Shown: positions 6,923-53,389 of the stretch, in pieces
Layout of the letters: each line of letters opens with the position of its first letter
How positions within the stretch are numbered: the first letter of the stretch is position 1
Source: a virus
Strand: one strand, 5' to 3'
DNA: 64,000 nucleotides
Virus record (IMG/VR): IMGVR_UViG_3300027742_000011
The notes under the pieces: model-generated
The model's database searches: none
What the model was told of the DNA's origin: nothing
Seen by the model: only the letters and a program-made list of their open reading frames with translations
Position numbers and translations under genes: made by a program

Positions 6923-6939
6923 CTGTTTCTTTCCCTAAT

Positions 6940-6970: not shown

Positions 6971-6971
6971 G

Positions 6972-7070: not shown

Positions 7071-7150
7071 CAAAGAGTTTTCCTAAGACTTATCTTTGTT
7101 AAAACGGGATTGCCTTGGCCTTACCGCCGCACAGAACTGCCTGTACAGTT

Positions 7151-7786: not shown

Positions 7787-8714
7787 GTTTCACAAAGGTA
7801 CCACCAGATCGCGTTACGTATCCTTCATGACCTACTTGGTCGTCGCCAATATACATTTCAAGATCACCGCAACTTGAGCGTTTGTCGAGATAGTCGATGA
7901 GACTCCGTTTGTATCTTAATAAGGCGAGGTAAACTCGTAATATCTCATAAGGATAATTGTATTTATAAACAATGTCCCCTAGAGTTTGTTCATTTATTTC
8001 AATTCTATTTCTAACAAGACTATTAATTTCCTTTAACAGTACATTAATATTAGTTAATGAAGTTTTTTCATATGACTCATCTGAAATGTGACTAAAAGCT
8101 TCTTCCAAATCATAATATTCTTTTGGGGATATTAAACCATTGTTATCAAATCTCGTTATAGTTTTATCCGGGATATAATATCGCCCGCATAGAGTATTTT
8201 CATCACAATGGTGACCCATCGGGTGCGCATTACCGTGTCTATCATAGCGGGTATGTATAGCTAGAACCATCTCATAATCTACTGAATGAGCGCGCTTCTT
8301 AAATTTGTACGTAATGTTATTAGGCGTGCGGGAGCCGTCTTCTATATCTTTATGAAACAGCAAATCTGCCTGGAAGATATTACTATCTTTGTGGAGACTG
8401 GGATAATTTTTATAAAACTCATTCATCGTAGGCCAAAGTTTCTCAAGTTTTTCTACCAAACCAGGACTCCTAGCTCCATGATTTTTATGAATGTCTGATA
8501 CGGAGTAATTAATTTTAGGTGTCTTATTAAAATAAGATTTAGAAGAAAGAAAGAACTTTTGCTCGACTGGACATATGCCGAATACTAATGCTGGCATTCC
8601 GTCGTATTTGATAGAATACGATTCTTGTTCCAGCGCGACCAAAGAAGACTTGGCACTCTGATAGTTCATTAATGCCAAGTCTTCTAAGTGGTGTATATGA
8701 CTAACTTTCTGCAT
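7734..8714 (-). CDS. Conserved T4-like protein with covalent nucleotidyltransferase (ligase-fold) motifs
   Basis: HIHHLED, KYDG (motif I-like), QADLLF, EGYV (motif IV-like), VKLVNR. Confidence 0.65.
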   Translation of the reverse strand: MQKVSHIHHLEDLALMNYQSAKSSLVALEQESYSIKYDGMPALVFGICPVEQKFFLSSKSYFNKTPKINYSVSDIHKNHGARSPGLVEKLEKLWPTMNEFYKNYPSLHKDSNIFQADLLFHKDIEDGSRTPNNITYKFKKRAHSVDYEMVLAIHTRYDRHGNAHPMGHHCDENTLCGRYYIPDKTITRFDNNGLISPKEYYDLEEAFSHISDESYEKTSLTNINVLLKEINSLVRNRIEINEQTLGDIVYKYNYPYEILRVYLALLRYKRSLIDYLDKRSSCGDLEMYIGDDQVGHEGYVTRSGGTFVKLVNRDIFSHANFEKFSG

Positions 8715-13980: not shown

Positions 13981-14332
13981 TCCGTGGTTTCCTTTTATGC
14001 GGTGGTTCTTTTTCCCATAAATTTCCACTATTAATTATGTCTTGACGATGTTCATCTAATGTTTTAGGTTTAAATTCTTTTTCCATCTCTTTAAAATACA
14101 GAGGTTTGAGATCAATTAGAAAAGTTCTGAGGCGGTCAGCCAAGTCAATATCATTTTCAGATCCGTCTACATTATCGAGCAGTTCAATCAATCTATTTAC
14201 CGTAAACTCATCTAGAGGTAATTGTTTAGAAATTCTATTATAATAGTATGCTTGCTCCCAAATGTGCATTCGTTGGGCGCTCTGTTCAGCACAAGTTTCA
14301 TAATTTGTATAATATTCATTTAAATTGATCAT
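13973..14332 (-). CDS. Hypothetical protein
   Basis: ATGA-coupled to the gp43 stop. Confidence 0.6.
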   Translation of the reverse strand: MINLNEYYTNYETCAEQSAQRMHIWEQAYYYNRISKQLPLDEFTVNRLIELLDNVDGSENDIDLADRLRTFLIDLKPLYFKEMEKEFKPKTLDEHRQDIINSGNLWEKEPPHKRKPRNG

Positions 14333-15264
14333 GAGAACCAATCCTCCAACGTTGATACCTTTTCAGCATTCCATCCGATAGCTTTCAGTATAGATTGCAG
14401 GGGATCAATAAACGACTTTTCAAACTGTAAATCGTAATCAATGTATCTCTCTATCTCGAACTCAGGCGGCAGATTGTCTGGACATGCTACAACGTTCGAA
14501 AAGTATGGATTTGGCTGTTTAAGTTGAGCATACCGAATTTTATCGCCGCTGCCTATCTGCTCATATTTATCACCAATATCGTGTTCTTTTAGCAATCTAT
14601 TAAATAAAATTGAACCTTTTACATGGATGGGAGTACCGCTTACGAATCCTTCTTTCGAAGCCCATTTATCTATATCCGAGATACCTCGGGGAAATGCGAT
14701 TTGTTCGAAGTCGAACTCTGTAAATTCATCTCTAAATTTCTCAACATATTCTTGAAGATCACTTTCCTCTTTCAACATGATAATTTTCAGGGCATTCTTA
14801 ATTGCATTTCTACAAACCGCAGGAGTAGATGATTTGATCGCTTCGATACCAGACATTTTAAGTTTAGGCTCTGAGTATTCAACTCCTTCTTGGTTGAATA
14901 CGTTGAGAATATATCTCTTCTTCGCAGTCCAAATTCCCTTGTTGGCTATGCATTCTCTCTTCATTTGCATTTTCTGTTGAGATGCCTGCATCATTTCTGC
15001 GAGTTCTTCGTAATAACGATCGATAGCTGGCTCAAGCTTCTTTTCACAGTATTGATCAAGAATTCTAGATATTTCTTGATCGGATTTGCCTTCAGGAATT
15101 ACCTTCTTGACAAGTTCATCTAGAGTAATGTAAACTGAATTATGCACGCATATATCATTAGCAAAAAAGTTATGATTATCTTCAACTTCTATATCATAAA
15201 CATAATCTTCAATCTCACCTAAATCTTCTACTGTATAGTTTAAATCAAATTTTAGTTCTGACAT
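14329..15264 (-). CDS. gp43: gp43 DNA polymerase C-terminal fragment (42-aa C-intein plus extein)
   Basis: VYDIEVEDNHNFFANDICVHN|SVYIT; KKRYILN; MSGIEAIKSSTP. Confidence 0.93.
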   Translation of the reverse strand: MSELKFDLNYTVEDLGEIEDYVYDIEVEDNHNFFANDICVHNSVYITLDELVKKVIPEGKSDQEISRILDQYCEKKLEPAIDRYYEELAEMMQASQQKMQMKRECIANKGIWTAKKRYILNVFNQEGVEYSEPKLKMSGIEAIKSSTPAVCRNAIKNALKIIMLKEESDLQEYVEKFRDEFTEFDFEQIAFPRGISDIDKWASKEGFVSGTPIHVKGSILFNRLLKEHDIGDKYEQIGSGDKIRYAQLKQPNPYFSNVVACPDNLPPEFEIERYIDYDLQFEKSFIDPLQSILKAIGWNAEKVSTLEDWFS

Positions 15265-16312
15265 GTTTTAAAATTCTTTCAATGGTTTTATTAGGATCTT
15301 TTGTATAATCATATTCCCAAATGGTAATGCATTCAATGTTACGCTTTTCTAATATTAGTTTTAATTTATAATCGTCTTCTTCCCATCTCTCTTTAGCCTT
15401 CACTTTAGTCTGACCCCGCCCCCTTAAGCATTCATTCGGATGATATAATTTTGGATTTCCATGATAATGATCTCCATGATATTCTATTGCAAAATTTAGT
15501 TCTGGACAAACGAAATCGTATTTTTTATAAGTGTTGTTATCTAAAATGCCATACTCACCGCCATTTTCCGCATAATAGCATTTCTTGTGTGTAAATGGTT
15601 CTGACCTTATTAGTTTAGAAAATAACCTCTGTGATGCTTTTGAGTATGGCGATTTTGATTTTCTTACATATTCTTCATATTTAATTTTACCATCATCGCC
15701 ATATTTTCTGATGAAATTTTCTAAAGTTAATGCCTTTTTAGAATTAATTTCTAAATATTTGGATTTTCCTAAGTACTCTTCTGTATTTGTATATGCTTGC
15801 TTTTTACAATATTCATCGAATCTTCTTGTACCTTCATATTCGCCGTATTTTGAAACTAAATTCTCTAATGTAACTGCTCTAGATTTATTAAATTCATCAA
15901 ATTTAGTCTTTGTCCATCCGTGTTTTTTATTTTTATACTCAAAGGAATTTGTATATGCTTGCTTTTTACAATATTCATCGAATCTTCTTGTACCTTCATC
16001 TTCGCCGTATTTTGAAACTAAATTCTCTAAAGTTATGGCCTTTAGAGAATTTAGTTTATCATACTTTTGTTTTCCTAATTCTTCACCGTACATTAAAATG
16101 CATTTTTCTAGAGATACAACTGATCCTAAGTGTAAACAAGTCTTAACAATATGATACAAATCATCTATGTTTGGATTTCGGTATTTAATAATATTTTCAA
16201 CCGAAGATTTGTGTATGTTATTTTCTAAATATTCAATCTGGCTGCATGTTAAACTGCATTCAATGTTTACTTCTGAACCGTATTTCTTATATTTTCTTAT
16301 TATTTTCTTCAT
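15245..16312 (-). CDS. Homing endonuclease, Vsr/PD-(D/E)XK-like, between the gp43 halves
   Basis: YDFVCPELNFAIEYHGDHYHG, ITIWEYD; N-terminal TLENxxxKYG repeats. Confidence 0.8.
   Translation of the reverse strand: MKKIIRKYKKYGSEVNIECSLTCSQIEYLENNIHKSSVENIIKYRNPNIDDLYHIVKTCLHLGSVVSLEKCILMYGEELGKQKYDKLNSLKAITLENLVSKYGEDEGTRRFDEYCKKQAYTNSFEYKNKKHGWTKTKFDEFNKSRAVTLENLVSKYGEYEGTRRFDEYCKKQAYTNTEEYLGKSKYLEINSKKALTLENFIRKYGDDGKIKYEEYVRKSKSPYSKASQRLFSKLIRSEPFTHKKCYYAENGGEYGILDNNTYKKYDFVCPELNFAIEYHGDHYHGNPKLYHPNECLRGRGQTKVKAKERWEEDDYKLKLILEKRNIECITIWEYDYTKDPNKTIERILKHVRTKI
15786..16030 (-). repeat. 83-bp direct repeat with 1 mismatch (15786-15868 and 15948-16030)
   Basis: Offset 162 nt; encodes LENLVSKYGExEGTRRFDEYCKKQAYT twice. 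Confidence 0.9.
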
Positions 16313-18389
16313 CTGTTATCATTGAATCCTTATCTGTTCCTATTATATTTATAATACTGTGAATTTTTGGATTCAGTTTATGTGGTTTTATAGATGATAT
16401 TTTTTTTGTGTTTACGTTCCGTGCTATAATACTATGATCTTCTGTGACAACAACAGACTTCCCGTCATTGTTCGTAATCCTAAACATCCTCTTTTTTACT
16501 TTATGTTTCATAACATAATTAATACTTTTTGTTTCTAATTTTCCTTCCTTAGAAACTGAAGGCGTAGTGTCATTTTCACACAATTTAACATAATTGTGAT
16601 TAAATTTATCGCACTTTAAGAAAATGTCTTCTTTGAGATTATAATAATCTTCAATTGTCATATCTACACCGTTTACATTTATAACAGACTCACCAACGAC
16701 TGAATCCGTATCAGACGCGATCACATAATCAGCGTTTTCAGTACCAAGAAGTTTGTTGAAATATTCATTCAAGCGGTCTGCAATCCATCTAATTGAAAGC
16801 TGGCCAGACATTGTAATAGCTTCAGCATGATTAATATCATACCAACGGAAATACCTGTTGCCGAGAGCACCATAAGCTGAGTTGAGCTGAATCTTTTTAG
16901 CCATTTGAAGATTATTGAGCTTAGATATTATTTTCTCTAATTCCCACCTCTCTTTCTTATCAGAAGTGATCTGAAGCTTCTGTTGAGCGCTGATCATTTG
17001 CTTCTTGTAGACTTTACGATCATTATACATTTTCTGCATAAGAGCTGCAAGAAAACCTTGTTCGCTCTTGTCGTAAAAGCACCCATTGGCGCAATATGAA
17101 TATTGGTCGTCTAGGTTCACCTTTCTTTCTAAAAGATCATCAATCGACGGGAACCCTGACATCTTACCTCTGAATTTCTCAGGTGAGATATTATATTGCA
17201 TGATAAGGTGTGGATATAGTGAATTCAAGTCAAATGATATCACCCACTTGTGTAGACCGGTTTGAGGTGCCTTAACATAACCACCAACTAGTGGAGCATT
17301 AAATCCTGGTTCATTTTTCATTGGGATCACGTAACCCTGATCCATCAGATAATTGTGGATCATGATGTCCCATTGACGAACTGAAGCTAAAGTATCTTGA
17401 TAGTTTACTTTCGCGTCATACGCTAGAGCAAAAACTAGATCAATGAGTTTAAGTTTTTCTTCTAATTTGAAAACCAAATCGACATCGTGAATATTGTAGG
17501 CTACGTACTTTTGAGGATCTTTTGCATACAAGTCATCAAGGTTGCCATATTCAGAATAATCAATCTTCTTTTCACCAAGCTCCTCTTGACATATGAAGTC
17601 AAGTCTATAACTTTCACGTGGTGTATATATGAATTTCTTATAAAGCTGCATGTAATCTAATACAGCGATACCTTCAATTCTAAATGAAGGGCAAGGTTTA
17701 CCTTTGATATAAACTTCATACTGGTTCAATTTGCCCCAAGGGCTAAGTTCTTTAGCGAATTTCTCACCAAGAACACGAATAATTCTATTCACTAAATATG
17801 GAATATCATAAAATTCACAGTTCCAACCCGTAATTACATCGGGATCGAGATACTTCCAGATTTCTATAATCTTGATTAGCATCTCTCTTTCACTTTTACA
17901 ACGATAGTAAACTACGTTTTCATTAGTTTCTTCAAAGTCTTTCACACCAAACACGTAACGCATATTACCTTTTCTTAAGGTAACACAAGTGATTTCATTT
18001 GGTACTGTTGTAACTGAGGTTGCGATGTCCACTCTTCGAGTCATCGCGTTTTCGATATCTATACCTACAACCGAGATATTCTCAGGTTCATAGTTTATAG
18101 TGCCTTGGAAATTATCATAGATAAACGCATACTGAAAGGTTGAAAGACCGTAGATGGAGAAACCGCCCACATCTTCATATTGTTTAATAAATTGCCGTGC
18201 ATCGTACATCGTGTTGAAATTTTTCTTTTCAACATACTTACCATCAAGCGTTTTGAATTGTGTTTCTGTTGAAGCTGGTACGAATAAGTATGGGGAATAT
18301 GAATAGATTTCTTTATGGGGTTTTCCTGCCTTTACACCTTTAGCATATATTCTTCCCTTGTTAAGGAAGATGTTTGTGTAAAAATCCAT
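16287..18389 (-). CDS. gp43: gp43 family B DNA polymerase N-terminal fragment plus N-intein
   Basis: Exo DIE, FDIPY-like (YDIPY), YNIHDV; SFDLNSLYP; KIQLNSAYG; ASDTD|S. Confidence 0.95.
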   Translation of the reverse strand: MDFYTNIFLNKGRIYAKGVKAGKPHKEIYSYSPYLFVPASTETQFKTLDGKYVEKKNFNTMYDARQFIKQYEDVGGFSIYGLSTFQYAFIYDNFQGTINYEPENISVVGIDIENAMTRRVDIATSVTTVPNEITCVTLRKGNMRYVFGVKDFEETNENVVYYRCKSEREMLIKIIEIWKYLDPDVITGWNCEFYDIPYLVNRIIRVLGEKFAKELSPWGKLNQYEVYIKGKPCPSFRIEGIAVLDYMQLYKKFIYTPRESYRLDFICQEELGEKKIDYSEYGNLDDLYAKDPQKYVAYNIHDVDLVFKLEEKLKLIDLVFALAYDAKVNYQDTLASVRQWDIMIHNYLMDQGYVIPMKNEPGFNAPLVGGYVKAPQTGLHKWVISFDLNSLYPHLIMQYNISPEKFRGKMSGFPSIDDLLERKVNLDDQYSYCANGCFYDKSEQGFLAALMQKMYNDRKVYKKQMISAQQKLQITSDKKERWELEKIISKLNNLQMAKKIQLNSAYGALGNRYFRWYDINHAEAITMSGQLSIRWIADRLNEYFNKLLGTENADYVIASDTDSVVGESVINVNGVDMTIEDYYNLKEDIFLKCDKFNHNYVKLCENDTTPSVSKEGKLETKSINYVMKHKVKKRMFRITNNDGKSVVVTEDHSIIARNVNTKKISSIKPHKLNPKIHSIINIIGTDKDSMITDEENNKKI

Positions 18390-37675: not shown

Positions 37676-38341
37676 TCAGCTTCCGTACGAAGAAGATGCC
37701 TCGACCGCGATATAATATTCTACAAGTGGTCCTTTAAAGTGTGAAAGACCTTTTGATGAGATTTCGACTTCATAATCACCTGGCAAGACTTTTAAGTGTT
37801 CCGCTTTAATAATCATTTGGAACTTGTCAGATGTTTCTGACTTACCAACCGCAACACTATATCTGTCGGCAGATGGGTTTTTACTATCGATAGCATCAAG
37901 AGTAATATTTTCTCCGTCGCCGACGATGGCCATTTCTGGTAGGCTTAGAACGTTCAATGCTTTCATAAAATCATTAAGCACTTCAGCTTCAAGCTTGAAA
38001 GAGATTTCCGGTGCTGGAAATTTAATGTCCTTTTGTGGAGGAACAATAATCGTATTTGGATCTGCGAAGGTGTAATTGATCCTGCGACGACCTTCCTTAA
38101 GTGTAAGGTTCTTGTCTCCAATCTCCACATCTGCATTTTCGAAGAGTGAAAGAGTAGACAAGAACCTTGATAAATCGTAAATTGCAAAGCTTGATGCAAT
38201 ATTGTGTTCAATAGTCGCTTTTGCCAAAATGGTTTTATTGGCTGAGATTGTTGAAAGGGTATTACCAGCTTGGAACATGATTCCATGGTTAATGCCCGAA
38301 TAGTTTTTCAAAATCTGTAGTGTTACATCATCAAATTTCAT
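37676..38341 (-). CDS. gp45: Sliding clamp gp45
   Basis: MKFDDVTLQILKNYSGIN...FAIYDLSRFLS...YYIAVE; ATGA-coupled start. Confidence 0.93.
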   Translation of the reverse strand: MKFDDVTLQILKNYSGINHGIMFQAGNTLSTISANKTILAKATIEHNIASSFAIYDLSRFLSTLSLFENADVEIGDKNLTLKEGRRRINYTFADPNTIIVPPQKDIKFPAPEISFKLEAEVLNDFMKALNVLSLPEMAIVGDGENITLDAIDSKNPSADRYSVAVGKSETSDKFQMIIKAEHLKVLPGDYEVEISSKGLSHFKGPLVEYYIAVEASSSYGS

Positions 38342-39765
38342 AATATTTTCCATTTCGTAGTTCCACAATTCCAATAACGTCTATATCCGTTATTGAACAT
38401 ATTTTGTGCTTCAGTTAATTCATTATTAAAGTGATCTAATAATTTATGTTGTTTATGTTTCTGGGCGGCAAGTCTATTTATCGTACCAATATCCTTTCTC
38501 CAATAATAATAACTTGGTGAGTTTACATGTTCTTCGCTAAAGCCACATTGAAGATATGATTTGCCATCAAACTTATCATTATCGGAATATGATATAAGAT
38601 TATCTGAATATGTCCTTAAAAAATGCTTTATCAATTTAGAGGTTCCTCCGACAACTGACGTATCCAATTTATGACACATTCTTATAAGTTCATATGTTTT
38701 ATCTTTTGTATATCTACTTATGCCAAATGTTGCAACAGACACAAGATTATTTTTATAAAAAAGACCAATTTTTATAGAGGAATTTGTATATCCTTTAAGG
38801 TGATTTTCATTAATAAATCCTCTAGCAATATTTGTGTCTAATTTTTTAATATCTGTATTTCGACCATATATTCTGATGTTTGATAATCCTAATCTACTTT
38901 TAATGATAGATTTTATAATATCTTGTTTTTCGTACCATTCATAGTCGGTAAAACTCAAAAACTTTAAACCCACATCTCTACATTTTTTATATTTTGTAAA
39001 GTGTTTGTTTTTTTCGTCTTGATCTTCTCTATAATTATATGAGTGCCAATAAATTCCATTAACTTCTATTGCCAAATCATTTACTAAAATGTCTATCTCT
39101 AAAGGAGGTATGCGAGTCCTATCATTCTGTTTAGTTTCAAGTCCTAATGATTCTACATAATCATTTACTTCTCTTTGGGGAGTTGATACATCATGTGAAG
39201 GAAATTCTAAATCAAATTCATTTATTCTTTGACACAAGAATGAATAACTTATTCCATATTCAGAGCAAATATCATATAACCTAGGTTTCTTTAATAATAA
39301 TTCTTCTACAAATGACTTATCACGAAAAAACTGTGTATTGTTATCGCGCTGCATTGGGTGGCCACCATTTGAATTCCAAGTATCTATTCTTTTTTGTATA
39401 GAAACACTAGACTTTGACGGGTGATCTACACCATATTTTTCCATGCAAGTCGATTTAATTTTTTCTTGAACGTTATTATCTAAAAATACATTTTTTACAC
39501 CATACTTTTTATATGATGTATTTTCTCTAGATTTTTCCATACAAGATCTATCACCACACGTCTTTAAATACCCTTTAATGAATGATTTAAAAATTTTTGG
39601 CTTTTCACAAAAACATTTCTGTATATCAAAATTGTTATGATAACAATAAGCAGCTTCTACAATGTTTTCTGTATTATATTTAGATGATAGTTTTTCTGTA
39701 AGTTTACTATCTTTTAATATAGCAGACTTTCTTATTGAACCATCACCTAAAATGGGAAGTTTCAT
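38338..39765 (-). CDS. Hef-like homing endonuclease (PD-(D/E)XK core plus C-terminal domain)
   Basis: KKYGVKN repeats, EIDILV..LAIEVNGIYWHS, NGYRRYWNCG. Confidence 0.8.
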   Translation of the reverse strand: MKLPILGDGSIRKSAILKDSKLTEKLSSKYNTENIVEAAYCYHNNFDIQKCFCEKPKIFKSFIKGYLKTCGDRSCMEKSRENTSYKKYGVKNVFLDNNVQEKIKSTCMEKYGVDHPSKSSVSIQKRIDTWNSNGGHPMQRDNNTQFFRDKSFVEELLLKKPRLYDICSEYGISYSFLCQRINEFDLEFPSHDVSTPQREVNDYVESLGLETKQNDRTRIPPLEIDILVNDLAIEVNGIYWHSYNYREDQDEKNKHFTKYKKCRDVGLKFLSFTDYEWYEKQDIIKSIIKSRLGLSNIRIYGRNTDIKKLDTNIARGFINENHLKGYTNSSIKIGLFYKNNLVSVATFGISRYTKDKTYELIRMCHKLDTSVVGGTSKLIKHFLRTYSDNLISYSDNDKFDGKSYLQCGFSEEHVNSPSYYYWRKDIGTINRLAAQKHKQHKLLDHFNNELTEAQNMFNNGYRRYWNCGTTKWKIL

Positions 39766-40875: not shown

Positions 40876-41505
40876 TTATTTTCCTTTTCTGTTTTTACTA
40901 ATTAACATTTTTGTTTTGTTAGTATGTTTTTTCCCATAAAACGGATTATTTTTACCTGATTTATCGTAATTTCCGAATTTTGAATCCTTTGGTATTATTC
41001 TACCTTTATTCCAAGTTGAATATTTTTCATCAAAAACTTCTTTTGTAACTCTTTTATTTTTTAAGCCATCATTTATCCAAATTTTGTTTTTGTGATTACC
41101 ATCCGCCGAAAGAAAAGCTTCCAAGTGTTTTTTTCTATTTTCTTTACATAAAAATTGATTAGTTGCACTTTCTCTTAATTTTTCTTTTAGAGCATCATCC
41201 ATTATTATAGCAAAACCGCCAACAGATTTATTTAACCAAAAATCCCAATTGCCAGAATTATATAATTCTTTAAGATAATGGTGTTCATATTTAATGGCAT
41301 TCGTTATATTCTCAAATCTTTCATCTATAATAATCATGTCTGGCTCACCATTTTTATCTCTAAAATAATGAACATATTTAGATGATGTGAAATATTTTAT
41401 CCACAGATCATCTTCTGGTGCACATTCATTAGCATATCGAACACCATAATAATAAACATTAAATTTTGACCAGCCTATTATATATGTATACGCTTCGTTA
41501 TTCAT
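40876..41505 (-). CDS. Free-standing GIY-YIG (Seg-like) homing endonuclease with NUMOD3
   Basis: AYTYIIG...YYYGVR, YFTSS, GKNNPFYGKKHT. Confidence 0.82.
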   Translation of the reverse strand: MNNEAYTYIIGWSKFNVYYYGVRYANECAPEDDLWIKYFTSSKYVHYFRDKNGEPDMIIIDERFENITNAIKYEHHYLKELYNSGNWDFWLNKSVGGFAIIMDDALKEKLRESATNQFLCKENRKKHLEAFLSADGNHKNKIWINDGLKNKRVTKEVFDEKYSTWNKGRIIPKDSKFGNYDKSGKNNPFYGKKHTNKTKMLISKNRKGK

Positions 41506-41669: not shown

Positions 41670-43277
41670 ATGAAGAATTTTATTCAAGAAAATTGTATGA
41701 CAAAGACTGGCAGAATTGGTTTCAATAACAGATGCCATAATAGTATTTGGTGGGAAAATAAGAATTTTCATAATCAACTCAATAAAATTGTATCTCTGAC
41801 ATCATTTTTGAAAGATGCGTCTTCAACAGTGCCACAAAGATGTTGGCATATTCTCAATGATATTTATATAACTCCTACATGTAAGAATAATAAATGTAAT
41901 GAAAATACAAATTTTAAATCTTTCTCTAAAGGTTATTATAACTATTGTAGTAAGAAATGTTCTTCACAATGTGAAGAACGCAATAAAAAAATAGTTAATA
42001 ATACTAATCATGCAGAGATGGTTAAAAATCTTAAGAGGTCAAATTTAGAAAGATATGATGTAGAATATAGTTTTCAGAGAAAAGACGTAAAGAATAAATC
42101 AAAAAAGACTAAACTTAAAAAATATGGTGATAGTAATTATTGTAATTTTGAAAAGGCAAAGAAAACTAACATTAAAAAATATGGCTCTGAGTTTTATTTT
42201 TCATCAGATATCGGTAAAGGTGTGTTAGAAAAGATGCGAATTCAAAATAATGGTTCTTTAAAATTAGATAAGGCTACAAACACCCTTTTAAATGATATTA
42301 ATTATCTTAAAGAAATGAATAAGAATTTAAATATTGATGAGATAGCTGATGAACTAAACGTGACTAGAACAGGTCTCAAAAATATTTTAGTAAAAAATGA
42401 TATAGAATTAAAGAAACATAAAAGAAAAACTAAGCTACATACTCAGGAAGAAATTTATGATTACTGTAAACATCTTACTGATAAAGTTGTGTGGAATGAT
42501 AGGAAAGCAATTAATCCAAAAGAATTAGACATCTATTTCCCAGATCATAGCGTTGCTATAGAATTAAATGGTTTATATTGGCATTCATATAATTATATAG
42601 AAAATTCTGAAGAGAAGATGAAACATTATGCAAAATATCAAGAGTGTAAAGACAAAGGAATTAGATTAATACAATTAACAGACCGTGACTGGTCGAATAA
42701 GAAAGATATATGCAAAGGAATAATTGCTAATTCGGTTGGAGTATGTAGTGAAAAAATTAGAGCCTCTAAATGTGTAATTCGAAAAATGAATACAAAGGAA
42801 GCTAAGGAATTTCTAAATGATAATCATATACAAGGGTATTCAGCATCATCAATAAAACTGGGTCTTTATTATAAAGAAACCTTAGTTTATATCATGACAT
42901 TTTCTAAACCAAGATTCAGTGTTAAATATGATTATGAGCTCATTAGATGTTGTTCTAAATTAAACACAAAAGTATATGGTGCAGCATCTAAGATATTAAA
43001 ATATTTCAATAAAAATTCTATCATTAGTTATTGTGATATATCAAAATTTGAAGGTAAATTATATGAGAGTCTTGGTTTTGAATATAGTCACGCATCTAAA
43101 CCAAATTATTTCTACTTTAAGAAAGATGTAATTATTCCAAGATATAAGGCTCAAAAAGCCAACCTTCATAAAATTCTTGATGTTTTCGATTCAAATAAAA
43201 CAGAAGCTGAAAACATGTTCATTAACAATTATAGAAGATATTGGGATTGTGGGAACAGTGTGTTTATTCTGGAATAG
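41670..43277 (+). CDS. Hef-like homing endonuclease, antisense
   Basis: ELDIYFPD..AIELNGLYWHS, NNYRRYWDCG. Confidence 0.8.
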   Translation: MKNFIQENCMTKTGRIGFNNRCHNSIWWENKNFHNQLNKIVSLTSFLKDASSTVPQRCWHILNDIYITPTCKNNKCNENTNFKSFSKGYYNYCSKKCSSQCEERNKKIVNNTNHAEMVKNLKRSNLERYDVEYSFQRKDVKNKSKKTKLKKYGDSNYCNFEKAKKTNIKKYGSEFYFSSDIGKGVLEKMRIQNNGSLKLDKATNTLLNDINYLKEMNKNLNIDEIADELNVTRTGLKNILVKNDIELKKHKRKTKLHTQEEIYDYCKHLTDKVVWNDRKAINPKELDIYFPDHSVAIELNGLYWHSYNYIENSEEKMKHYAKYQECKDKGIRLIQLTDRDWSNKKDICKGIIANSVGVCSEKIRASKCVIRKMNTKEAKEFLNDNHIQGYSASSIKLGLYYKETLVYIMTFSKPRFSVKYDYELIRCCSKLNTKVYGAASKILKYFNKNSIISYCDISKFEGKLYESLGFEYSHASKPNYFYFKKDVIIPRYKAQKANLHKILDVFDSNKTEAENMFINNYRRYWDCGNSVFILE

Positions 43278-43440
43278 TAATAATCTGCGATTCACTGCTT
43301 GTCGGAATAAACACAATGGAGTCATTCTCTGTCAAAAACCCATCTTTAAGCAGCTTGTTTTTAATTTTGCGCGACGTACTCACAAAATCTTTATCTAGCG
43401 GATTATTATTCTCGCTATTTAGACGATATACTAGTTTCAT
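43264..43440 (-). CDS. Small hypothetical protein (58 aa)
   Basis: Manual translation MKLVYRLNSENNNPLDK...ITIPE*. Confidence 0.45.
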   Translation of the reverse strand: MKLVYRLNSENNNPLDKDFVSTSRKIKNKLLKDGFLTENDSIVFIPTSSESQIITIPE

Positions 43441-43708
43441 TTTTATTATCCTTAGTTTGTTGTATTAATCTCTTCGCAAAGAATTCAATTTTCTCTGCGT
43501 CATAGAGATATGAATTTCCAGGCTTACCATTTCCTTGGCGAGCTGCGGTCATTCTCCACACAGCTTTAAGAATGTTTCCCTCAGCAAAAGACATGCCGAG
43601 CGCTTCGATAATATCGTTACACTCGGCATCATATTCTTCTCCTAATGTAGTAGGATGTTTAACGTGAACTCGATAATAATCGTTTGATCCGCCAGACAAT
43701 CTCTTCAT
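43415..43708 (-). CDS. DUF3310-like protein
   Basis: SNDYY...ECNDIIEALGMSFAEGNILKAVWR...YDAEK. Confidence 0.65.
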   Translation of the reverse strand: MKRLSGGSNDYYRVHVKHPTTLGEEYDAECNDIIEALGMSFAEGNILKAVWRMTAARQGNGKPGNSYLYDAEKIEFFAKRLIQQTKDNKNETSISSK

Positions 43709-44920
43709 TCAAAAAAACCCCATAACTGAACTTTCATTTCTATTGATTTCTTCCAGAACTTCTCTCGAATTGTTGTTCTGGAGTAGATATTTAGCCTCGA
43801 CCCAGTTTCTGTTTCCCTGTAAAGATTCTTTAATTTCAGTCGCCATATCCATAGCAGTTTTTACTGGAACATTTTGGCATATGTGGTTGATTGATTTTCG
43901 AGGGCTTAACAGTTCAAAGTCTGCAGGCATTCCCATAATAGTCATCGCTTCTCTAAAAGTAATGTAGCGATCTTCGACTGGATGGGTTAAGCGCTTCGGG
44001 TAAAGACCTACAAAAGCACCGATATGATCTTTTGGAATGATCACACCTCGCCTCATAATATCTTTTCCACTCTGCAACTTATTGTATTTATACACACATT
44101 CATCATATTCTTTAGAAAAGTTATGTTTTTTCATCCATTCTGCTACATCCATATAAGAATATCCCATCTTCTCGATGTAAGCGAAAGTGTCATTTTCACG
44201 AACAGATTTGGCAGGCTCTACTAGTTTAGAATGTTCTGTATGTGATCTTCCATTGTGGATTACTTCTAATATAAACCGATAATATGGATTAACTGATGGT
44301 GCTTTGCGGTTAATAGGCTCTTGTTGAGAATTAATGCTGGCTGCAGATTTGATTTCCTCTTCAATTGTAGTTCTAGGTCTAGAATAATAATTGAAGATCG
44401 GAACCTTATTCCCTTTCCAAAAGAAATAGAACGATCTTTCTCTAACTTGAGATATACCATGCAGTAGACTTTTGGTTCTATAAGCGGACATCGAATATCC
44501 GAACTCATCGGCAATATCAATCATCTCTTCTCTAAATGTCTTGCCGATTTTACCAACAAATCCTGGTGCATTTTCAGAAAAGAAAACTTTTGGTTTAATT
44601 TTTTCTAAAACAAATTTTGTTGTTTTTATCATCCAATCGTTATTAACGTTAGAATCGCCATATTTATTGCTTAATTGAGATAAACCCGCGCACGGACAAA
44701 TACTACCAACAATATCTACATTATAGTTTATACACGGTATACCATCATCTAAATTGTAATATGGAATATTATTATTATAGTAGTTTAATAAATGGCTATC
44801 ATTCTCTTTAAATGCACTATAACTCAAAATATATTTAGGTTTTTGGTTTAAAACTTTACCTATAGCTATGTCTAATCCGCCTATTAAGGGAACAATAGAA
44901 GCGTATGTTATATTTGTCAT
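43709..44920 (-). CDS. C5-cytosine methyltransferase-fold protein with atypical SAM motifs
   Basis: CPCAGLS (IV), ENAP (VI), QVRERS (VIII), ITFREA (IX); motif I reads IVPLIGG and motif X reads CQNVP. Confidence 0.8.
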   Translation of the reverse strand: MTNITYASIVPLIGGLDIAIGKVLNQKPKYILSYSAFKENDSHLLNYYNNNIPYYNLDDGIPCINYNVDIVGSICPCAGLSQLSNKYGDSNVNNDWMIKTTKFVLEKIKPKVFFSENAPGFVGKIGKTFREEMIDIADEFGYSMSAYRTKSLLHGISQVRERSFYFFWKGNKVPIFNYYSRPRTTIEEEIKSAASINSQQEPINRKAPSVNPYYRFILEVIHNGRSHTEHSKLVEPAKSVRENDTFAYIEKMGYSYMDVAEWMKKHNFSKEYDECVYKYNKLQSGKDIMRRGVIIPKDHIGAFVGLYPKRLTHPVEDRYITFREAMTIMGMPADFELLSPRKSINHICQNVPVKTAMDMATEIKESLQGNRNWVEAKYLLQNNNSREVLEEINRNESSVMGFF

Positions 44921-46545
44921 AGTGAATATTTCCAAAGAGTTGTTCCGCAATCCCAATATCTTCTATATCCAGCAGAAAACATATTTTCGCTTTCTGTTTT
45001 ATTTTCATCACAGTTATCCAATAATTTTGGCAACTTATGTTTTTGGGCATTCATGCGATTTAACACTTTCCCCGACTTCCAATAATAATACCCTGGCAGA
45101 TTTTCGTGAACTTTCTCAAAGCCACATTTTTTATATGATTTGCCTGAGAATTTATTATTAGATGTATATGATATTAAGCTGCCTGTATGATATGTCAAAG
45201 CACCTTTGAGCAATTTACTAAATCCACCAACTATATTTGTATTTAACTTAAATGCTAATCTAGCAATTTCCCAATCGTATAATTTAGAAAATCTACATTT
45301 ACTAATACAAATTACACCAACTAAATCATTATCATAATATAGACCATATGCACTATTAAGTGGGCATTTGCCTTTAATATGATTAGACTCTAAAAATTCA
45401 TTGGCAGCTAATTTGTCAATTAAGGCAAATTTAGTTTTCCTAGCAAAAATCTTATTTGACAAATTTAGTCTGGATCTAATAATAGATTTTAATACGTCTT
45501 TTTTGTTTTCCCACTCGTAATCTGTAAATGATATAAAATCCAAACCCAAATTGCGACACAATTTCATTTTGTTATAATGTTTTAGCTTCTCTTCTTTAGT
45601 TTCTAATTTATCATACGAGTGCCAATAAATTCCATCTACTTCAATAGCCAGATTATTAACCAATACGTCGATTTCATAGGGAAATATAGTTTTTCTGTCT
45701 TCACACAGAGGCGAAAAGCCAATACTTTTAACAAATTCAGCAACTTCATAATGACATTTTGAAAAATTCGAATGGAGAGGATTAAATCCATATTCTTTTA
45801 TCTTTCTACCCAGCCAATTCGGATCTACATCATATATACTTGCCAAAAGATTTAAGTTTACCTGCCTATTGTGTACCAGCTCCTTAAGAAATAAAGGATC
45901 GTTTAATTTTACTCTACCCGGCCTTTTATTATCTTCTAAATGTTGACGAGTTTTGATGGATCTTCTGCGGTTGCTTTCTAGCATAGAAGGATATTCTGCA
46001 CCATATCTTTCTAGGTTAGTTTTTTTAGTTTTTTCTTTAACCTTTTCTAACTTGCTAGGGTCACATCCATATTTTTTAATATTGTTTTCACTTCGGATGC
46101 TAATAATATGTGTGTTTTGTGTTGGATATTCTACTCCATATCTCTCTAAATTGGTCCTTTTAATTTTATTTTTGATAGTTTTAGACTTTAAAGGATGATC
46201 AGTTCCATATCTCTCTAAATTGGTCTTTTTAATTTTATTTTTAGTTTTTTCTAATTGATATGAATTTTTTACCCCATATCTTTCTATCATAGTTTTTTCT
46301 GTAGCTTTTTTCTTACAATCTAAAGAACCGCACGATTTACTATATCCTTTAGCAACACCTTTAAATTTGAGTTGTGCACCACAAAAACATATAGCTTTTA
46401 CACTATCATGAATGACGTGATAAATATGTTGATTAATATTATCAGATTCTATATTAGATCTTTTCTTTATTTCTAAGACCAATACTTTATCTTTTAATAT
46501 TGCAGCAGTATTAATTGCTCCGTTTTTCCGCCTTGGTAGTTTCAT
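44917..46545 (-). CDS. Hef-like homing endonuclease
   Basis: TNLERYG repeats, EIDVLV..LAIEVDGIYWHS, AGYRRYWDCG. Confidence 0.8.
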   Translation of the reverse strand: MKLPRRKNGAINTAAILKDKVLVLEIKKRSNIESDNINQHIYHVIHDSVKAICFCGAQLKFKGVAKGYSKSCGSLDCKKKATEKTMIERYGVKNSYQLEKTKNKIKKTNLERYGTDHPLKSKTIKNKIKRTNLERYGVEYPTQNTHIISIRSENNIKKYGCDPSKLEKVKEKTKKTNLERYGAEYPSMLESNRRRSIKTRQHLEDNKRPGRVKLNDPLFLKELVHNRQVNLNLLASIYDVDPNWLGRKIKEYGFNPLHSNFSKCHYEVAEFVKSIGFSPLCEDRKTIFPYEIDVLVNNLAIEVDGIYWHSYDKLETKEEKLKHYNKMKLCRNLGLDFISFTDYEWENKKDVLKSIIRSRLNLSNKIFARKTKFALIDKLAANEFLESNHIKGKCPLNSAYGLYYDNDLVGVICISKCRFSKLYDWEIARLAFKLNTNIVGGFSKLLKGALTYHTGSLISYTSNNKFSGKSYKKCGFEKVHENLPGYYYWKSGKVLNRMNAQKHKLPKLLDNCDENKTESENMFSAGYRRYWDCGTTLWKYSL

Positions 46546-47560
46546 TTATAAATCTTTTCGATATCTGTAAAGCTTGATTTATTGCCATATCCATATCTAT
46601 ATATACATACTTACCACAACGACCAACGAAAGTAGTTTTAGCATTTTTAATTTTAGCATATTTTTCGTAGGTTTTTCTGTTATCGCCATCGATATCCTTT
46701 ACAGGATAATATCTCTCCATATTATTTTCCTTATAGTCACAAGGATATTCTTGAGTAATGATAGACCACTTATCATTTTCGCCATGGCCCGGTAGTCTTT
46801 GCCAATTAGTAAAGCGGGTGGTCGGTCTATCATCCGTGTAATTAACAGTCGCTACATCGATATGCTCTAACTGTTCAGAAGGAACCGTATTGGTCATAAA
46901 TTGAATTGAACGATATGGAAGTTCGCCATATTTAAAGTCATAGTACTCATCAATAGGCATAGAGTTAAACACGTGTGAATATTTCTTTTCCATGGACTTC
47001 TTAAACTCGGTATTCAATAGAACACGTATATTAGAATGACCCAAGATGTTATGCACTAATGAAGTGTAACCACATTTTGGCATATATTGATACTTATCAT
47101 CTGGAAAATAATACTCGTTATCATCATCACGAATAGGCACACGATTAATAATATCAGGGTTAAGTTCTTCTAACTCCATTCCCCACATCTTACGAGTGTA
47201 TGGCCGATAGAATGTATCAATAACATTCTCTTCACCAACAATTCTTTTCGTTTCGGCATTAACAGGAAGAGTTACAAGTTGCCCGTCTCTCAGTTGAGCT
47301 TTAACTTTATGTTTATATGGGAGCCACTCAGTAAACTGTGAAAGATAGTCATACACCTTTTCATTGTTCGTGTGAAATAGGTGTGGGCCATATTTGTGGA
47401 CTCGAATATTCCCATCCGACATTTCGTGCTGATAATCATACGCATTACCAGCGATATGACCTCGTTTGTCGATTACATCAACATCATATCCTGCTTCGGC
47501 CATTTCACGTGCAATAATTGCGCCAGTAAAACCGGCACCGACTATTAAAATTTTCTTCAT
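46511..47560 (-). CDS. glf: UDP-galactopyranose mutase
   Basis: VGAGFTG FAD motif, AGNAYD, HKYGPHLFHT, ERYYPV, GRCGKY.Y.DMD. Confidence 0.92.
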   Translation of the reverse strand: MKKILIVGAGFTGAIIAREMAEAGYDVDVIDKRGHIAGNAYDYQHEMSDGNIRVHKYGPHLFHTNNEKVYDYLSQFTEWLPYKHKVKAQLRDGQLVTLPVNAETKRIVGEENVIDTFYRPYTRKMWGMELEELNPDIINRVPIRDDDNEYYFPDDKYQYMPKCGYTSLVHNILGHSNIRVLLNTEFKKSMEKKYSHVFNSMPIDEYYDFKYGELPYRSIQFMTNTVPSEQLEHIDVATVNYTDDRPTTRFTNWQRLPGHGENDKWSIITQEYPCDYKENNMERYYPVKDIDGDNRKTYEKYAKIKNAKTTFVGRCGKYVYIDMDMAINQALQISKRFINETTKAEKRSN

Positions 47561-48654
47561 CGTTTCGCTTCCAGAACCTCATTAAGTTCTAACTGGAAAA
47601 TCTTTCTGTCTAACGGATGATTTTCGTATAGGGCATTGTGTTGCGCTCTAGTGAATTCGATAAGTTGTTTGTCACTCATCGATTCAATATCTTCAGCCTT
47701 CTTATTAGACAGCTGTTCATCTTGGTAATATACAAACAGCTCTTTAGGATCACCAATAAGGATAGACCCTGTGTCTGCTACTTGAAGAGGGCGCGCCCTC
47801 CACCAACCAGAGCCCGAGTGGAAGTAACCAGGCATTAAGCAACCCCACTGCTCTGCGTATCGGCGGCACATTTCATCTTCAGTAATTCTTTCAGATTTCT
47901 CTTCTTTCGCTCGTGCGCCATAGCTTTTTAGTGGCCATTCAGGATTTTGTTCCTTTAACCACTTCTTGGTTTTCTTATGCACGAGAGAAGCGAAATTCCA
48001 CACTTTCTGCTTATCTTCAAAATCAATAGCAGCATCGAAAATGCTAGTAACGCCTGAATGAAAATTGTTGGCTGGTGTTCTGTTCGAGTGATATGGATTT
48101 GGATTGAACCGAAAGACTCTTTCTGGGGCCCAATCGAGATTTAGTAGAGATAAATCACCGCGATCGAATGCTGAGATTAGAAGTCGATTGCTCTTTTCAA
48201 GCATGATCTCACAACCTTTAGCAAAGTCAGTTCGATGCTTATTAAGAGTTTCGATTGGATACTTAGTTTGTTGTAAGTCTAGTAGATATTGTCTAAATGC
48301 GTAATCGTCGTCGCGTGTAAGATTTTCAGCAAAACCACGAATGCCACCGTAAATTTGGTCTACTTGCCAGTCGTCGAATGCTAAAATGGCGTCGGGTCGC
48401 TGGGATAAAGCATAAGTTCCGGCATAAAGGTTTTGACAGAAGGATTGAGGACTATGCATGTAGAATATTACTTCATCATACCCAGAAATATCTTCTCCAA
48501 GCTTTACTTCTTTCTGAATCACCTCATATCCCATATCTCTAAGACCTCTAAGGACAGAATAATGAGATGGAACAACCTTAAGCTGTTGTTTTAAGAAATG
48601 ATCTTCATTACATTGTAAAGTATTCATTCCATTTACTAAAATAGTTTTAGTCAT
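47557..48654 (-). CDS. Putative DNA/nucleotide glycosyltransferase (GT-B-like)
   Basis: Rossmann-like N-terminus, AFDDWQ, LMPGY.HSGSGWWRARPLQ; position next to gp42 and glf. Fold is inferred. Confidence 0.5.
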   Translation of the reverse strand: MTKTILVNGMNTLQCNEDHFLKQQLKVVPSHYSVLRGLRDMGYEVIQKEVKLGEDISGYDEVIFYMHSPQSFCQNLYAGTYALSQRPDAILAFDDWQVDQIYGGIRGFAENLTRDDDYAFRQYLLDLQQTKYPIETLNKHRTDFAKGCEIMLEKSNRLLISAFDRGDLSLLNLDWAPERVFRFNPNPYHSNRTPANNFHSGVTSIFDAAIDFEDKQKVWNFASLVHKKTKKWLKEQNPEWPLKSYGARAKEEKSERITEDEMCRRYAEQWGCLMPGYFHSGSGWWRARPLQVADTGSILIGDPKELFVYYQDEQLSNKKAEDIESMSDKQLIEFTRAQHNALYENHPLDRKIFQLELNEVLEAKR

Positions 48655-49111
48655 GTATTACATTTCCTTCTTCGTCTAAGCTAATACATTGAACGCGGGC
48701 TTCTTTAAACATGCGTTTAGTAGTATTAGCAGACAATTTCCACTTATCACTAATGTCTTTTGAATATTGCATGACGACTTTCGATATGCCTACTTGAATT
48801 ATACCCTTAGCGCATTCATGACATACCGGTAAACCATAAACGTAGAGGTGCGCACCTTCAAGGGACACGCCATTCAACGTCGCATTATAAATGCAATTCA
48901 TTTCACCGTGTACAATATATGAGTATTTCTCTTCGCGATTCTCTAGTCTCTCATCGGAATCACTAATCCCTCTCGGAAAGCCATTATATCCTTGTGAAAG
49001 AATTTGTCTCTTATCGCCGACAGCAATTGCCCCGATCTTTGTAGACGGGTCTTTTGACCATTGCGCCACTTGCTTAGCAATTTCGAGATATCGGTTTGTC
49101 CATTTACTCAT
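48647..49111 (-). CDS. cd: dCMP deaminase
   Basis: SKDPSTKIGA, GYNG, HGEMN, PVCHEC. Confidence 0.9.
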   Translation of the reverse strand: MSKWTNRYLEIAKQVAQWSKDPSTKIGAIAVGDKRQILSQGYNGFPRGISDSDERLENREEKYSYIVHGEMNCIYNATLNGVSLEGAHLYVYGLPVCHECAKGIIQVGISKVVMQYSKDISDKWKLSANTTKRMFKEARVQCISLDEEGNVIHD

Positions 49112-49123
49112 AAATGTATTATC

Positions 49124-49858
49124 CTATAACTTTTCCGAGTCCAACACGTTGTTCCACTCTTTTTTAGTAAGTTGCTTGCCCGTTTGCGCGAACGATTCTA
49201 TGCGCCAAAAGTCTCTCTCGTAGATGTGGAGGCTTCCTACTTGCCAGTAAATATCACCCTTATCTAATTCTAGATCATTAGCCAGTTTAGTCAAAACATA
49301 GTCAGCCCATGCGCGATCATTACGATATCCAAATACGACGTCGTTCGATCTCATTTGCACGATTACATGAAGCTTATCATTTCTTATAACATACTGATGC
49401 GCGTTTGTACACATAAAGTCGCTTCGACCTTTATAATTATAGTCGAGATGCATATTTGGTCGAGTGTAAATCATGATAGCTCGGCGACTATCTTTATTTT
49501 CGATCAATTGTTCCTTCACAGCCTGATATTGCATGTAATTGTCTGGATGGAATACACACCAACCATAATTAGAATTGATGAAACCGTCTTCATCTGCGAC
49601 TTGTTGCCAAATCGCCGGAGTTTTATCAGGAATATCTGCAACATTTAAAGAACAGCTTTCATACCACCGAATTTCTCTATCAACATAGTCCCAATTTACT
49701 GGACCAAAGATGGTGTCTTCGTCTGCAATCAAGCTTGCGCCTACCCACTCGATAGTTTTCACACCAGTTTTATCGGTGACAAACTCTTCTCTGTGCAGTT
49801 TTTCTTTAAAAATTTCTCTTACGAGACTTACTGGTACATATGTTGAATAATCCATCAT
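49124..49858 (-). CDS. gp42: dCMP hydroxymethylase (T4 gp42-like thymidylate synthase family)
   Basis: DKTGVKTIE, INSNYGW, SRRAIMIYTRP, DFMCTN, MRSNDVVFGYRND (Asp at the cytosine-specificity position). Confidence 0.85.
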   Translation of the reverse strand: MMDYSTYVPVSLVREIFKEKLHREEFVTDKTGVKTIEWVGASLIADEDTIFGPVNWDYVDREIRWYESCSLNVADIPDKTPAIWQQVADEDGFINSNYGWCVFHPDNYMQYQAVKEQLIENKDSRRAIMIYTRPNMHLDYNYKGRSDFMCTNAHQYVIRNDKLHVIVQMRSNDVVFGYRNDRAWADYVLTKLANDLELDKGDIYWQVGSLHIYERDFWRIESFAQTGKQLTKKEWNNVLDSEKL

Positions 49859-52774: not shown

Positions 52775-53389
52775 TCAGACATGATTATCTGCCTTTGGCA
52801 AGGTACCATGATTATCTTCATGCGATGGGGCAGTCCAACCTTCAGGCTTCATCAAATCTGGCAGACCTAGTGGGTTTGGTCTTTCTTTTTTGATGCCGCG
52901 CTGCTTTGTCATGTTTGCATTATGAACTGCATTCCATGCTTTTTCTGAATCGATATCGAAGATATCAAGAGTACCAATGGCAACGACACACAGATCAACT
53001 AGTCCATCTACCACTTCCTCGGGATTATTCATATTATCCTTAATTTCATTAAGCTCTTCTTCAAGAAATGCTACGCGAAATTCTAACATTTTCTGCAGCT
53101 TCTCTTTATCAAAGTTACGAACCGTTTCGTGGAAACCGAACTTATCATGCATATCATATAAGTCTTGAACCCATTTACTGCGATCAACTTTTCCTTCTAC
53201 TCTATTCTCAATCATTTTCCATACCTTTTCATATTCTGGCCAATCACTTTCCACTACAGCATAAACTCTTTCTACTGGTTTTATTTGCTGCAAAAGGTGA
53301 TTTAGTGCCTTCTCTTCAAGAGTTCCTAAATCTTTTCTTTTTATAACATAATATCTATCTTCACGTTCAAAATTACTCATTTTTTCCAA
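52775..53389 (-). CDS. All-alpha NTP pyrophosphohydrolase (MazG/PRA-PH-like; possible dCTPase/dUTPase)
   Basis: FLEEELNE...EVVDGLVD...ANMTK...DLMKPEGW. Confidence 0.8.
   Translation of the reverse strand: MEKMSNFEREDRYYVIKRKDLGTLEEKALNHLLQQIKPVERVYAVVESDWPEYEKVWKMIENRVEGKVDRSKWVQDLYDMHDKFGFHETVRNFDKEKLQKMLEFRVAFLEEELNEIKDNMNNPEEVVDGLVDLCVVAIGTLDIFDIDSEKAWNAVHNANMTKQRGIKKERPNPLGLPDLMKPEGWTAPSHEDNHGTLPKADNHV

Follow-up and report, generated by a model that had tools for sequence, protein, structure and literature searches.

Phage cytosine hypermodification has been described for several systems, with which a locus of the virus record IMGVR_UViG_3300027742_000011 (IMG/VR) is compared here. The analysed stretch of this record, called the window below, is 64,000 nucleotides long, and the gene in question, at positions 43709-44920, encodes a protein with the fold of a DNA cytosine C5-methyltransferase (C5-MTase), referred to as the MT-like protein. 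In cytosine pathways of the T4/RB69 type, gp42 or a 5-hydroxy-deoxycytidine monophosphate (5-hydroxy-dCMP) synthase works with DNA glucosyl- or arabinosyltransferases; unlike the present locus, the pathway genes listed include no C5-MTase homologue, and the word "methyltransferase" occurs 0 times (PMC13326640). The window shares with these pathways a gp42 orthologue, a dCMP deaminase and a pyrophosphohydrolase, the alpha-glucosyltransferase is found in its relatives, and a uridine diphosphate (UDP)-galactopyranose mutase is shared with Rhizobium phage RL38J1. Other phage clusters combine a C5-MTase with TET/JBP enzymes and glycosyltransferases, the C5-MTase writing 5-methylcytosine (5mC) that TET oxidises to 5-hydroxymethylcytosine (5hmC) after replication (PMC8256090). 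A C5-MTase homologue beside DNA glycosyltransferases in a cytosine hypermodification cluster is common to both, but in the present locus 5hmC comes from gp42 before replication. A TET-coupled pathway was therefore rejected, since gp42 is present and no TET-like match was found among the open reading frames (ORFs) of the window scanned between 36.5 and 56 kb.

Two further kinds of enzyme resemble the MT-like protein itself. Canonical C5-MTases (M.HhaI, M.HaeIII and the LlaJI type) share its two-domain fold, its motifs IV, VI, VIII and IX, and the target-recognition domain between motifs VIII and IX. Unlike them, it reads VPLIGG at motif I, lacks the Glu/aromatic pair of motif II, has PCA in motif IV and a small residue followed by Gln in motif X, and its partners are dCMP-specific thymidylate-synthase homologues and DNA glycosyltransferases, not restriction enzymes. 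The best sequence match among solved structures is CmoX (PDB 8YF3), a phage DNA cytosine C5-carboxymethyltransferase that uses a cofactor other than S-adenosylmethionine (SAM), namely carboxy-SAM (Cx-SAM) (PMC12783734). Both proteins are phage C5-MTase homologues altered at the same position of motif X, with a small residue after Pro-Cys. In CmoX, R350 touches the carboxymethyl group of Cx-SAM and its mutation abolishes activity; the enzyme has an SPPC motif, retains Phe, Glu, Phe and Asp for the binding of adenine and ribose, and is accompanied by CmoA, the synthase of Cx-SAM (PMC12783734). The MT-like protein differs in having CPC and Gln349, in the lack of conservation of the adenosine-binding residues and in its partner gp42, and membership of the CmoX group was rejected since Arg350 and SPPC are absent. 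No CmoA was apparent among the annotated ORFs at 36.5-56 kb, where no search aimed at CmoA was made.

Other work on phage cytosine hypermodification has also been published, metavirome association studies included (PMC8670742; bioRxiv 10.1101/2023.12.21.572611 and 10.1101/2024.12.05.627091). Searches of the literature on this subject gave no paper on the subfamily described below, and the text searched has no mention of it or of a C5-MTase homologue inside gp42 clusters.

Fold and Catalytic Residues

The gene and the motifs of its catalytic core are as follows.
43709-44920, minus strand: C5-MTase-fold gene (P0001), 403 aa, stop codon included (PF00145, AlphaFold2 model and Foldseek)
44687-44698, minus strand: motif IV, C75-P76-C77-A78, catalytic Cys kept and PCQ changed to PCA (alignments to M.HhaI and LlaJI-type enzymes)
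44567-44575, minus strand: motif VI, E116-N117-A118, canonically ENV (alignment to M.HhaI)
44435-44449, minus strand: motif VIII, Q158-V-R160-E-R162 (alignment to M.HhaI)

The ORF was confirmed at exactly these coordinates. Its start codon overlaps the stop codon of the homing-endonuclease ORF that precedes it (ATGA), and a 97-aa ORF begins with an ATG immediately after its TGA. An earlier note, made from the sequence alone, had proposed a C5-MTase fold with motifs IV (PC), VI (EN) and VIII (QxRxR) intact, and both proposals were borne out. The protein matches PF00145 with 77.1 bits (cut-off 22; E 2.1e-21) over residues 14-364. The AlphaFold2 model, built with 102 homologues as input, has a mean predicted local distance difference test (pLDDT) score of 95.6, and its best Foldseek matches are ternary complexes of M.HhaI (E 1.3e-14, template modelling score 0.68 normalised by target), with further matches to the catalytic domains of DNMT1/MET1 and to CmoX. 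The modelled fold is thus that of an M.HhaI-like two-domain C5-MTase, an assignment that we regard as secure, and it includes a full target-recognition domain, strongly conserved in the family.

Motif registers were taken from a HMMER alignment to M.HhaI and from hhalign against canonical LlaJI-type enzymes (probability 99.5%). Motifs IV, VI and VIII were found intact in this way, and motif IX was also confirmed. To judge by these alignments, all residues needed for base flipping and for the attack of Cys77 on C6 are kept (CPC, ENA and QxRxR).

Cofactor Side of the Pocket

On the cofactor side, three motifs depart from the canonical pattern.
44876-44893, minus strand: motif I loop, V10-P-L-I-G-G15, in place of F-x-G-x-G-G (opposite FSGVGG in hhalign)
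44798-44824, minus strand: motif II region, S33-YSAFKE-N40-D41 (strand 31-33 and helix 35-47 in the AlphaFold2 model)
43865-43879, minus strand: motif X, C348-Q349-N350-V-P, with Q349 at the position of HhaI N304 and CmoX R350

Motif I does read VPLIGG, as the earlier note had it, and stands opposite F-x-G-x-G-G in hhalign, with Phe changed to Val and the first Gly to Leu (hhalign confidence 5-9 in this stretch). The PF00145 match begins at profile position 11, that is, after motif I, and HMMER found no similarity of residues 1-60 to any solved methyltransferase. After strand 31-33 (beta-2), no conserved Glu/aromatic pair was found. The canonical N-E-F of motif II is partly opposite a gap in hhalign, with low confidence in that stretch, and S33, F37, N40 and D/E41 are conserved instead of the canonical ribose-binding Glu and aromatic residue. 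The adenine- and ribose-binding residues of HhaI and CmoX (F18/F25, E40/E47 and W41/F48) lack conserved counterparts in the family. At the position of the motif III Asp (D58), 92 of 133 family representatives have Asp and 104 have Asp or Glu. For motif X, which had been read as GN changed to QN, the register was off by one: C348-Q349-N350 lies opposite G-N-(S/A) in three alignments, so that the changed residue is the Asn (HhaI N304), now Gln, while Gly is replaced by a small residue. The Gln of PCQ and the Asn of motif X, both polar and flanking C5 and the group that is transferred, thus appear to have been swapped to Ala and Gln. By analogy, this pair of changes may recall CmoX, which has Ser and Arg there and so accommodates a larger group.

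Conservation was counted in the 133 full-length cluster representatives, of 28-57% identity.
P11: 131/133
L12, Leu at the position of the first motif I Gly: 130/133
G14: 132/133
N40: 124/133
C77: 132/133
A/S/G78: 132/133
E116: 133/133
R160 and R162: 133/133 each
Q349: 130/133
N350: 127/133

Each of the motif I residues P, L, G and G occurs in at least 129 representatives. The unusual pocket residues are therefore conserved to the same degree as the catalytic ones, and the same residue signature is present in all clades of a tree of the representatives. The SAM-binding motifs had been called degenerate at the outset; the cofactor side is indeed altered, but changes that are nearly invariant in 133 representatives point to a pocket rebuilt and fixed, not decayed.

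Size and Distribution of the Family

Homologues of the MT-like protein number 2,576 at E<=1e-5 in a collection clustered at 90%, and a library clustered at 50% yielded 891 clusters at E<=1e-3, or 235 when the threshold was set at E<=1e-30. A search of 185,579 species genomes of bacteria and archaea with a closer alignment gave 14 family loci, every one of them from a metagenome bin. The family is a large subfamily of the C5-MTase fold with a viral distribution, no member having been seen outside phage contigs and metagenome bins. Cultured phages with a member are the S-TIM5-like cyanophages, Pseudoalteromonas phage XG4 and Bacillus phage G, and no others. More distant cultured matches, with 25% identity over the C-terminal three quarters, came from Streptococcus phage phiD12 and one Oscillospiraceae phage; the phiD12 enzyme, considered as a member, turned out to be canonical and of the LlaJI type. 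When cultured phages were searched by megablast with the gene and with 25 kb of the window, no close relative was obtained, only short polymerase matches. Longer fused family members carry no informative additional domain apart from one CXXC zinc finger.

Association with Enzymes Acting on Cytosine before Replication

The window encodes an orthologue of T4 gp42, with the catalytic Cys and Asp179 retained, 4.2 kb upstream of the MT-like gene.
49124-49858, minus strand: gp42-type dCMP hydroxymethylase (T4 gp42, 1B49, E 3.7e-77; DFMCTN and RNDRAW kept)

The earlier note had argued that a 5mC writer would be redundant if C5 were already hydroxymethylated at the nucleotide level. The argument gains weight from this genuine orthologue, since phage DNA that is fully substituted would leave an ordinary 5mC writer little to act on.

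The gene order is fixed in a close set of 80 related viral contigs (53-60% identity): gp46, MazG, a gp42-like gene, cd, a variable cassette and the MT-like gene, followed sometimes by dexA and then by phrog_1574, gp45 and gp44. Wherever at least 5 kb of upstream sequence is available, which is the case for 42 loci, the gp42-like gene is present. The cassette, just upstream of the MT-like gene, contains a T4-type DNA alpha-glucosyltransferase (PF11440, E 4e-69) in 20 loci, and in others an epimerase, an inositol-1-phosphate-synthase-like protein or unassigned proteins of 350-390 aa. Its sugar genes vary between loci, while the MT-like gene is constant.

The cultured members have comparable neighbours. 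In cyanophage S-TIM54, the MT-like gene lies two genes from a "ThyA" with Asp at the position of E. coli N177, and in Bacillus phage G it is near an alpha-glucosyltransferase-like gene, with a second thymidylate-synthase homologue bearing Asp 13 kb away. In Pseudoalteromonas phage XG4 (L084:100-6580), it is the last of a six-gene run headed by a gp42-type enzyme (E 5.6e-62), with a HAD-like protein, a nucleotidyltransferase-kinase fusion and two glycosyltransferase-like proteins in between. This layout parallels the arabinosylation clusters of RB69 and DLP3, but XG4 has a gp42-type enzyme. The 559-aa neighbour in XG4 and the 560-aa neighbour in S-TIM54 are unrelated to each other.

A divergent set of 155 further loci (25-74% identity to their seed alignments) was also analysed. 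A thymidylate-synthase homologue lies within 10 kb in 75 of them, and all but one of these homologues (74/75) have Asp at the N177 position, the Asp-type that is specific for dCMP. At the L143 position, Asp was found in 55 and Cys in 19. Among the 73 divergent loci with full flanks, an Asp-type enzyme lies within 6.1 kb in 43, a glycosyltransferase-like neighbour is present in 51, and one or the other in 69. When four contigs with no thymidylate-synthase homologue within 10 kb of the MT-like gene were inspected, three had an Asp-type homologue elsewhere. Tet_JBP (PF12851) matched 0/4 of these related contigs, a weak negative, since the positive-control genomes of the search likewise gave no match.

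For comparison, 80 viral loci around canonical C5-MTases (FxGxGG, GN) were screened with the same query set, and none (0/80) had a thymidylate-synthase or glycosyltransferase match; the association with thymidylate-synthase homologues relative to this control (Fisher p 1e-17) is indicative and not balanced, as temperate phages of one host group dominate the control set. The family is tightly linked to two kinds of enzyme, those through which cytosine C5 is occupied ahead of replication and the DNA sugar-transferases. The check suggested in the earlier note, conservation of VPLIGG and co-occurrence with gp42, was thus strongly positive across independent phage lineages, and the interpretation given in that note, that the protein may use another donor or process 5hmC further, is partly supported, with strong comparative evidence behind it.

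The thymidylate-synthase homologues with Asp at N177 and Cys at L143 (HCPPCHPN), found in S-TIM54 (locus L088) and in 19 divergent loci, form a distinct type.

C-Terminal Tail and Predicted Docking on the Sliding Clamp

The MT-like protein ends in a short hydrophobic peptide, which was examined together with the sliding clamp and the polymerase of the window.
43712-43741, minus strand: C-terminal tail RNESSVMGFF, predicted sliding-clamp-binding peptide (tail motif and complex prediction)
37676-38341, minus strand: gp45 sliding clamp, start taken at MKFDD as chosen from relatives (phrog_223, E 8.9e-72)
14329-15264, minus strand: C-terminal part of the DNA polymerase, ending STLEDWFS (phrog_262, E 9e-102)

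Clamp-binding peptides at the C-terminus occur on gp43, gp33 and gp55 of T4/RB69, and DNMT1 is linked to PCNA in animals. The tails of the MT-like protein (SSVMGFF) and of the phage polymerase (STLEDWFS) are alike, and the form [S/T/N][L/I/V/M]xx[F/W/Y] was found to end 110/120 close relatives and 32/127 divergent representatives, relative to a background of 3.6% of internal 12-mers. SLESFF-like tails also end many of the alpha-glucosyltransferase-like and 350-390-aa cassette proteins, whereas the mutase- and epimerase-sized cassette neighbours are mostly without them.

Complex prediction of the MT-like protein with gp45 gave a score of 0.65, the best control scoring 0.01; this mark is reached by 58/80 solved complexes and by 2/110 mismatched pairs. 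Contact agreement between runs was at least 51% and the partner pLDDT at least 85. The predicted interface comprises residues 375, 394-400 and 402-403 of the MT-like protein and residues 32, 35-39, 102, 104-109, 179, 198-199 and 210-216 of gp45. The tail is thus predicted to dock on gp45. As in the T4/RB69 examples, a short hydrophobic C-terminal peptide is involved, here predicted in the interdomain pocket of gp45; unlike them, it sits on a DNA-modification enzyme, and its docking is a prediction.

Many divergent members (representatives P0121-P0270) without the T4-type tail end in ...(K/S)x(V/L)LF, which we take to resemble the bacterial beta-clamp-binding motif. To judge from these endings, tethering to the host clamp could occur in other phage types.

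Possible Reactions of the MT-Like Protein

Taking the pocket, the neighbourhood and the tail together, the reading that we favour, for which we see about as much weight as against it, is that of a clamp-tethered enzyme performing covalent Cys-C6 chemistry on nascent 5hmC DNA, with no ordinary methyl transfer from SAM. The gp42 orthologue would supply 5-hydroxymethyl-dCMP, and the MT-like enzyme would ride the gp45 clamp behind the fork, beside the DNA sugar-transferases, and carry out this chemistry on the newly made DNA of the phage. It would act on 5hmC or on any cytosine that had escaped modification, and the reaction would be either an exchange or derivatisation of the hydroxymethyl group or the installation of a C5 group after replication. 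Substrate, cofactor and product are inferred in this reading, as are a possible loss of SAM binding, the use of another donor and a reaction on 5hmC; action on the phage's own nascent DNA is likewise presumed, and C5 methyl transfer should be impossible on fully substituted 5hmC DNA. The blocked C5, the lack of conservation of the adenine- and ribose-holding residues and the swaps to Ala and Gln together favour a reaction other than SAM-dependent methylation. A more far-reaching claim, that a natural DNA enzyme of the C5-MTase fold works without SAM at the fork of a 5hmC phage and exchanges, extends or installs a C5 substituent, is advanced tentatively, as a real possibility short of an even chance. 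Its product could be an undescribed hypermodified cytosine, or it could provide a post-replicative route to hydroxymethylation.

Several points weigh against the clamp-tethered enzyme without SAM methyl transfer. Two of the three motif I glycines (G14-G15) are still there, an acidic residue stands opposite the motif III Asp in most representatives, and the Rossmann-like half of the protein is still confidently folded in the AlphaFold2 model. The docking model resembles the solved RB69 clamp-peptide complex, so that likeness alone may explain its good score. That 5hmC takes the place of all C in this phage is an assumption, and, besides the composition of the control set given above, many of the associated loci come from related lineages and are hence not fully independent.

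The main rival is an ordinary SAM-dependent 5mC writer with a divergent pocket, which would methylate unsubstituted cytosines of phage or host and so shield the DNA from restriction or from nucleases of the phage itself that are specific for cytosine. We consider it rather unlikely. The PF00145 threshold is passed and the full HhaI-like fold is present, the catalytic motifs are intact, G14-G15 and the motif III-like Asp are retained, the conserved target-recognition domain fits a short or non-specific target, and clamp tethering would suit a post-replicative methylase equally well, DNMT1 tethered to PCNA being an example. On the other hand, the HhaI/CmoX residues for adenine and ribose have no conserved counterparts, a bulky Leu occupies the place of the first motif I Gly in 130/133 representatives, Gln stands throughout the family in place of the Asn next to the methyl group, and the family is found almost exclusively in the company of enzymes by which C5 is occupied beforehand.

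A special case of a reaction without SAM is that of a post-replicative finisher, which would hydroxymethylate residual cytosines with formaldehyde or a folate-type one-carbon donor and so make every cytosine a substrate for the sugar-transferases. Liutkeviciute, Klimasauskas and colleagues have reportedly described SAM-free chemistry of C5-MTases in vitro, in which hydroxymethyl groups are exchanged or nucleophiles added at 5hmC, a precedent for the favoured reactions as well. Addition of formaldehyde to cytosine by C5-MTases also proceeds in vitro without SAM. The location of the gene directly after glycosyltransferase genes agrees with this role, as do the clamp tail, whose predicted docking would put the enzyme on nascent DNA, and the hydroxymethylase type of 55/75 thymidylate-synthase homologues near divergent members, with Asp at both diagnostic positions. 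We nevertheless hold it to be improbable: no folate-binding features were identified in the protein, 19/75 of those homologues are of the other, S-TIM5-like type with Cys at the L143 position, and T4 manages without such an enzyme. Least probable of all is a non-catalytic or single-turnover binder that would flip or read C or 5hmC, marking or blocking DNA as Alc does or acting as a recruiter at the clamp, for although the altered cofactor pocket, the predicted clamp-docking tail and the strongly conserved target-recognition domain would suit it, Cys77, Glu116, Arg160 and Arg162 show little or no variation among the 133 representatives, which is hard to explain without catalysis.

If the clamp-tethered enzyme of covalent Cys-C6 chemistry is real, the DNA chemistry of hundreds of phage lineages with pre-modified cytosine includes an additional, unassigned step, performed by a repurposed methyltransferase fold, and a DNA base or an enzymatic reaction that is new could come to light. 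DNA-modifying enzymes would then also be recruited to the sliding clamp in phages. To our knowledge, C5 chemistry without SAM has until now been seen only as a side reaction in vitro, and 5hmC-specific enzymes are useful in epigenome sequencing. Since three cultured phage groups (S-TIM5-like cyanophages, XG4 and phage G) encode members, the question is directly testable.

Neighbouring Genes and Other Observations

Other features of the modification region are listed below.
52775-53389, minus strand: MazG-like nucleotide pyrophosphohydrolase, candidate dCTPase (phrog_671, E 1.3e-21; syntenic in relatives)
48647-49111, minus strand: dCMP deaminase (PF00383, E 8.5e-19)
47557-48654, minus strand: 365-aa protein, family unassigned (phrog_14998 only)
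46511-47560, minus strand: UDP-galactopyranose mutase (PF03275, E 1.2e-51)

Along the minus strand, the order is MazG-like pyrophosphohydrolase, dexA, three small ORFs, gp42 orthologue, dCMP deaminase, 365-aa protein, UDP-galactopyranose mutase, homing endonuclease, MT-like gene, DUF3310-like ORF, two homing endonucleases, 269-aa phrog_1574 protein, another endonuclease, gp45 and gp44. The 365-aa protein is a candidate DNA glycosyltransferase from its position alone, and it is co-inherited with the mutase, the two being paired in about 15-19 of the 80 related loci. For the 269-aa phrog_1574 neighbour, no Pfam or PDB sequence match was obtained, and a glycosyltransferase identity could not be confirmed.

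The 97-aa DUF3310-like ORF that starts directly after the MT-like stop codon (43415-43708, minus strand) matches only C-terminal parts of (poly)nucleotide-kinase PHROGs (phrog_4521, 7063 and 236). It was rejected as a partner of the MT-like gene and is probably an accessory insertion, because it is absent from 80/80 related loci. Three paralogous DUF7487/phrog_3339 homing-endonuclease genes, of 475, 535 and 542 aa, lie near the MT-like gene (38338-39765, minus; 41670-43277, plus; 44917-46545, minus), and a GIY-YIG/NUMOD3 gene at 40876-41505 is also packed around it; none of these four genes occurs in the 80 syntenic relatives.

The DNA polymerase consists of two ORFs on the minus strand (16287-18389 and 14329-15264) separated by a 355-aa ORF (phrog_22677), an arrangement that points to a split gene 43 or to the insertion of an element. 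Among the relatives, a protein of about 120 aa just 3' of cd (L004:6674-7039; homologues in 18 related loci) shows weak similarity to uracil-DNA glycosylases at the superfamily level (PF03167, E 1.4e-4). In some relatives, among them the related contig L073, the cassette encodes a myo-inositol-1-phosphate-synthase-like protein and a protein with the helical domain of 5-hydroxymethyldeoxyuridine (5-hmdU) DNA kinase (4741-5958 and 6800-8077), a composition that hints at non-sugar or phosphorylated cytosine derivatives.

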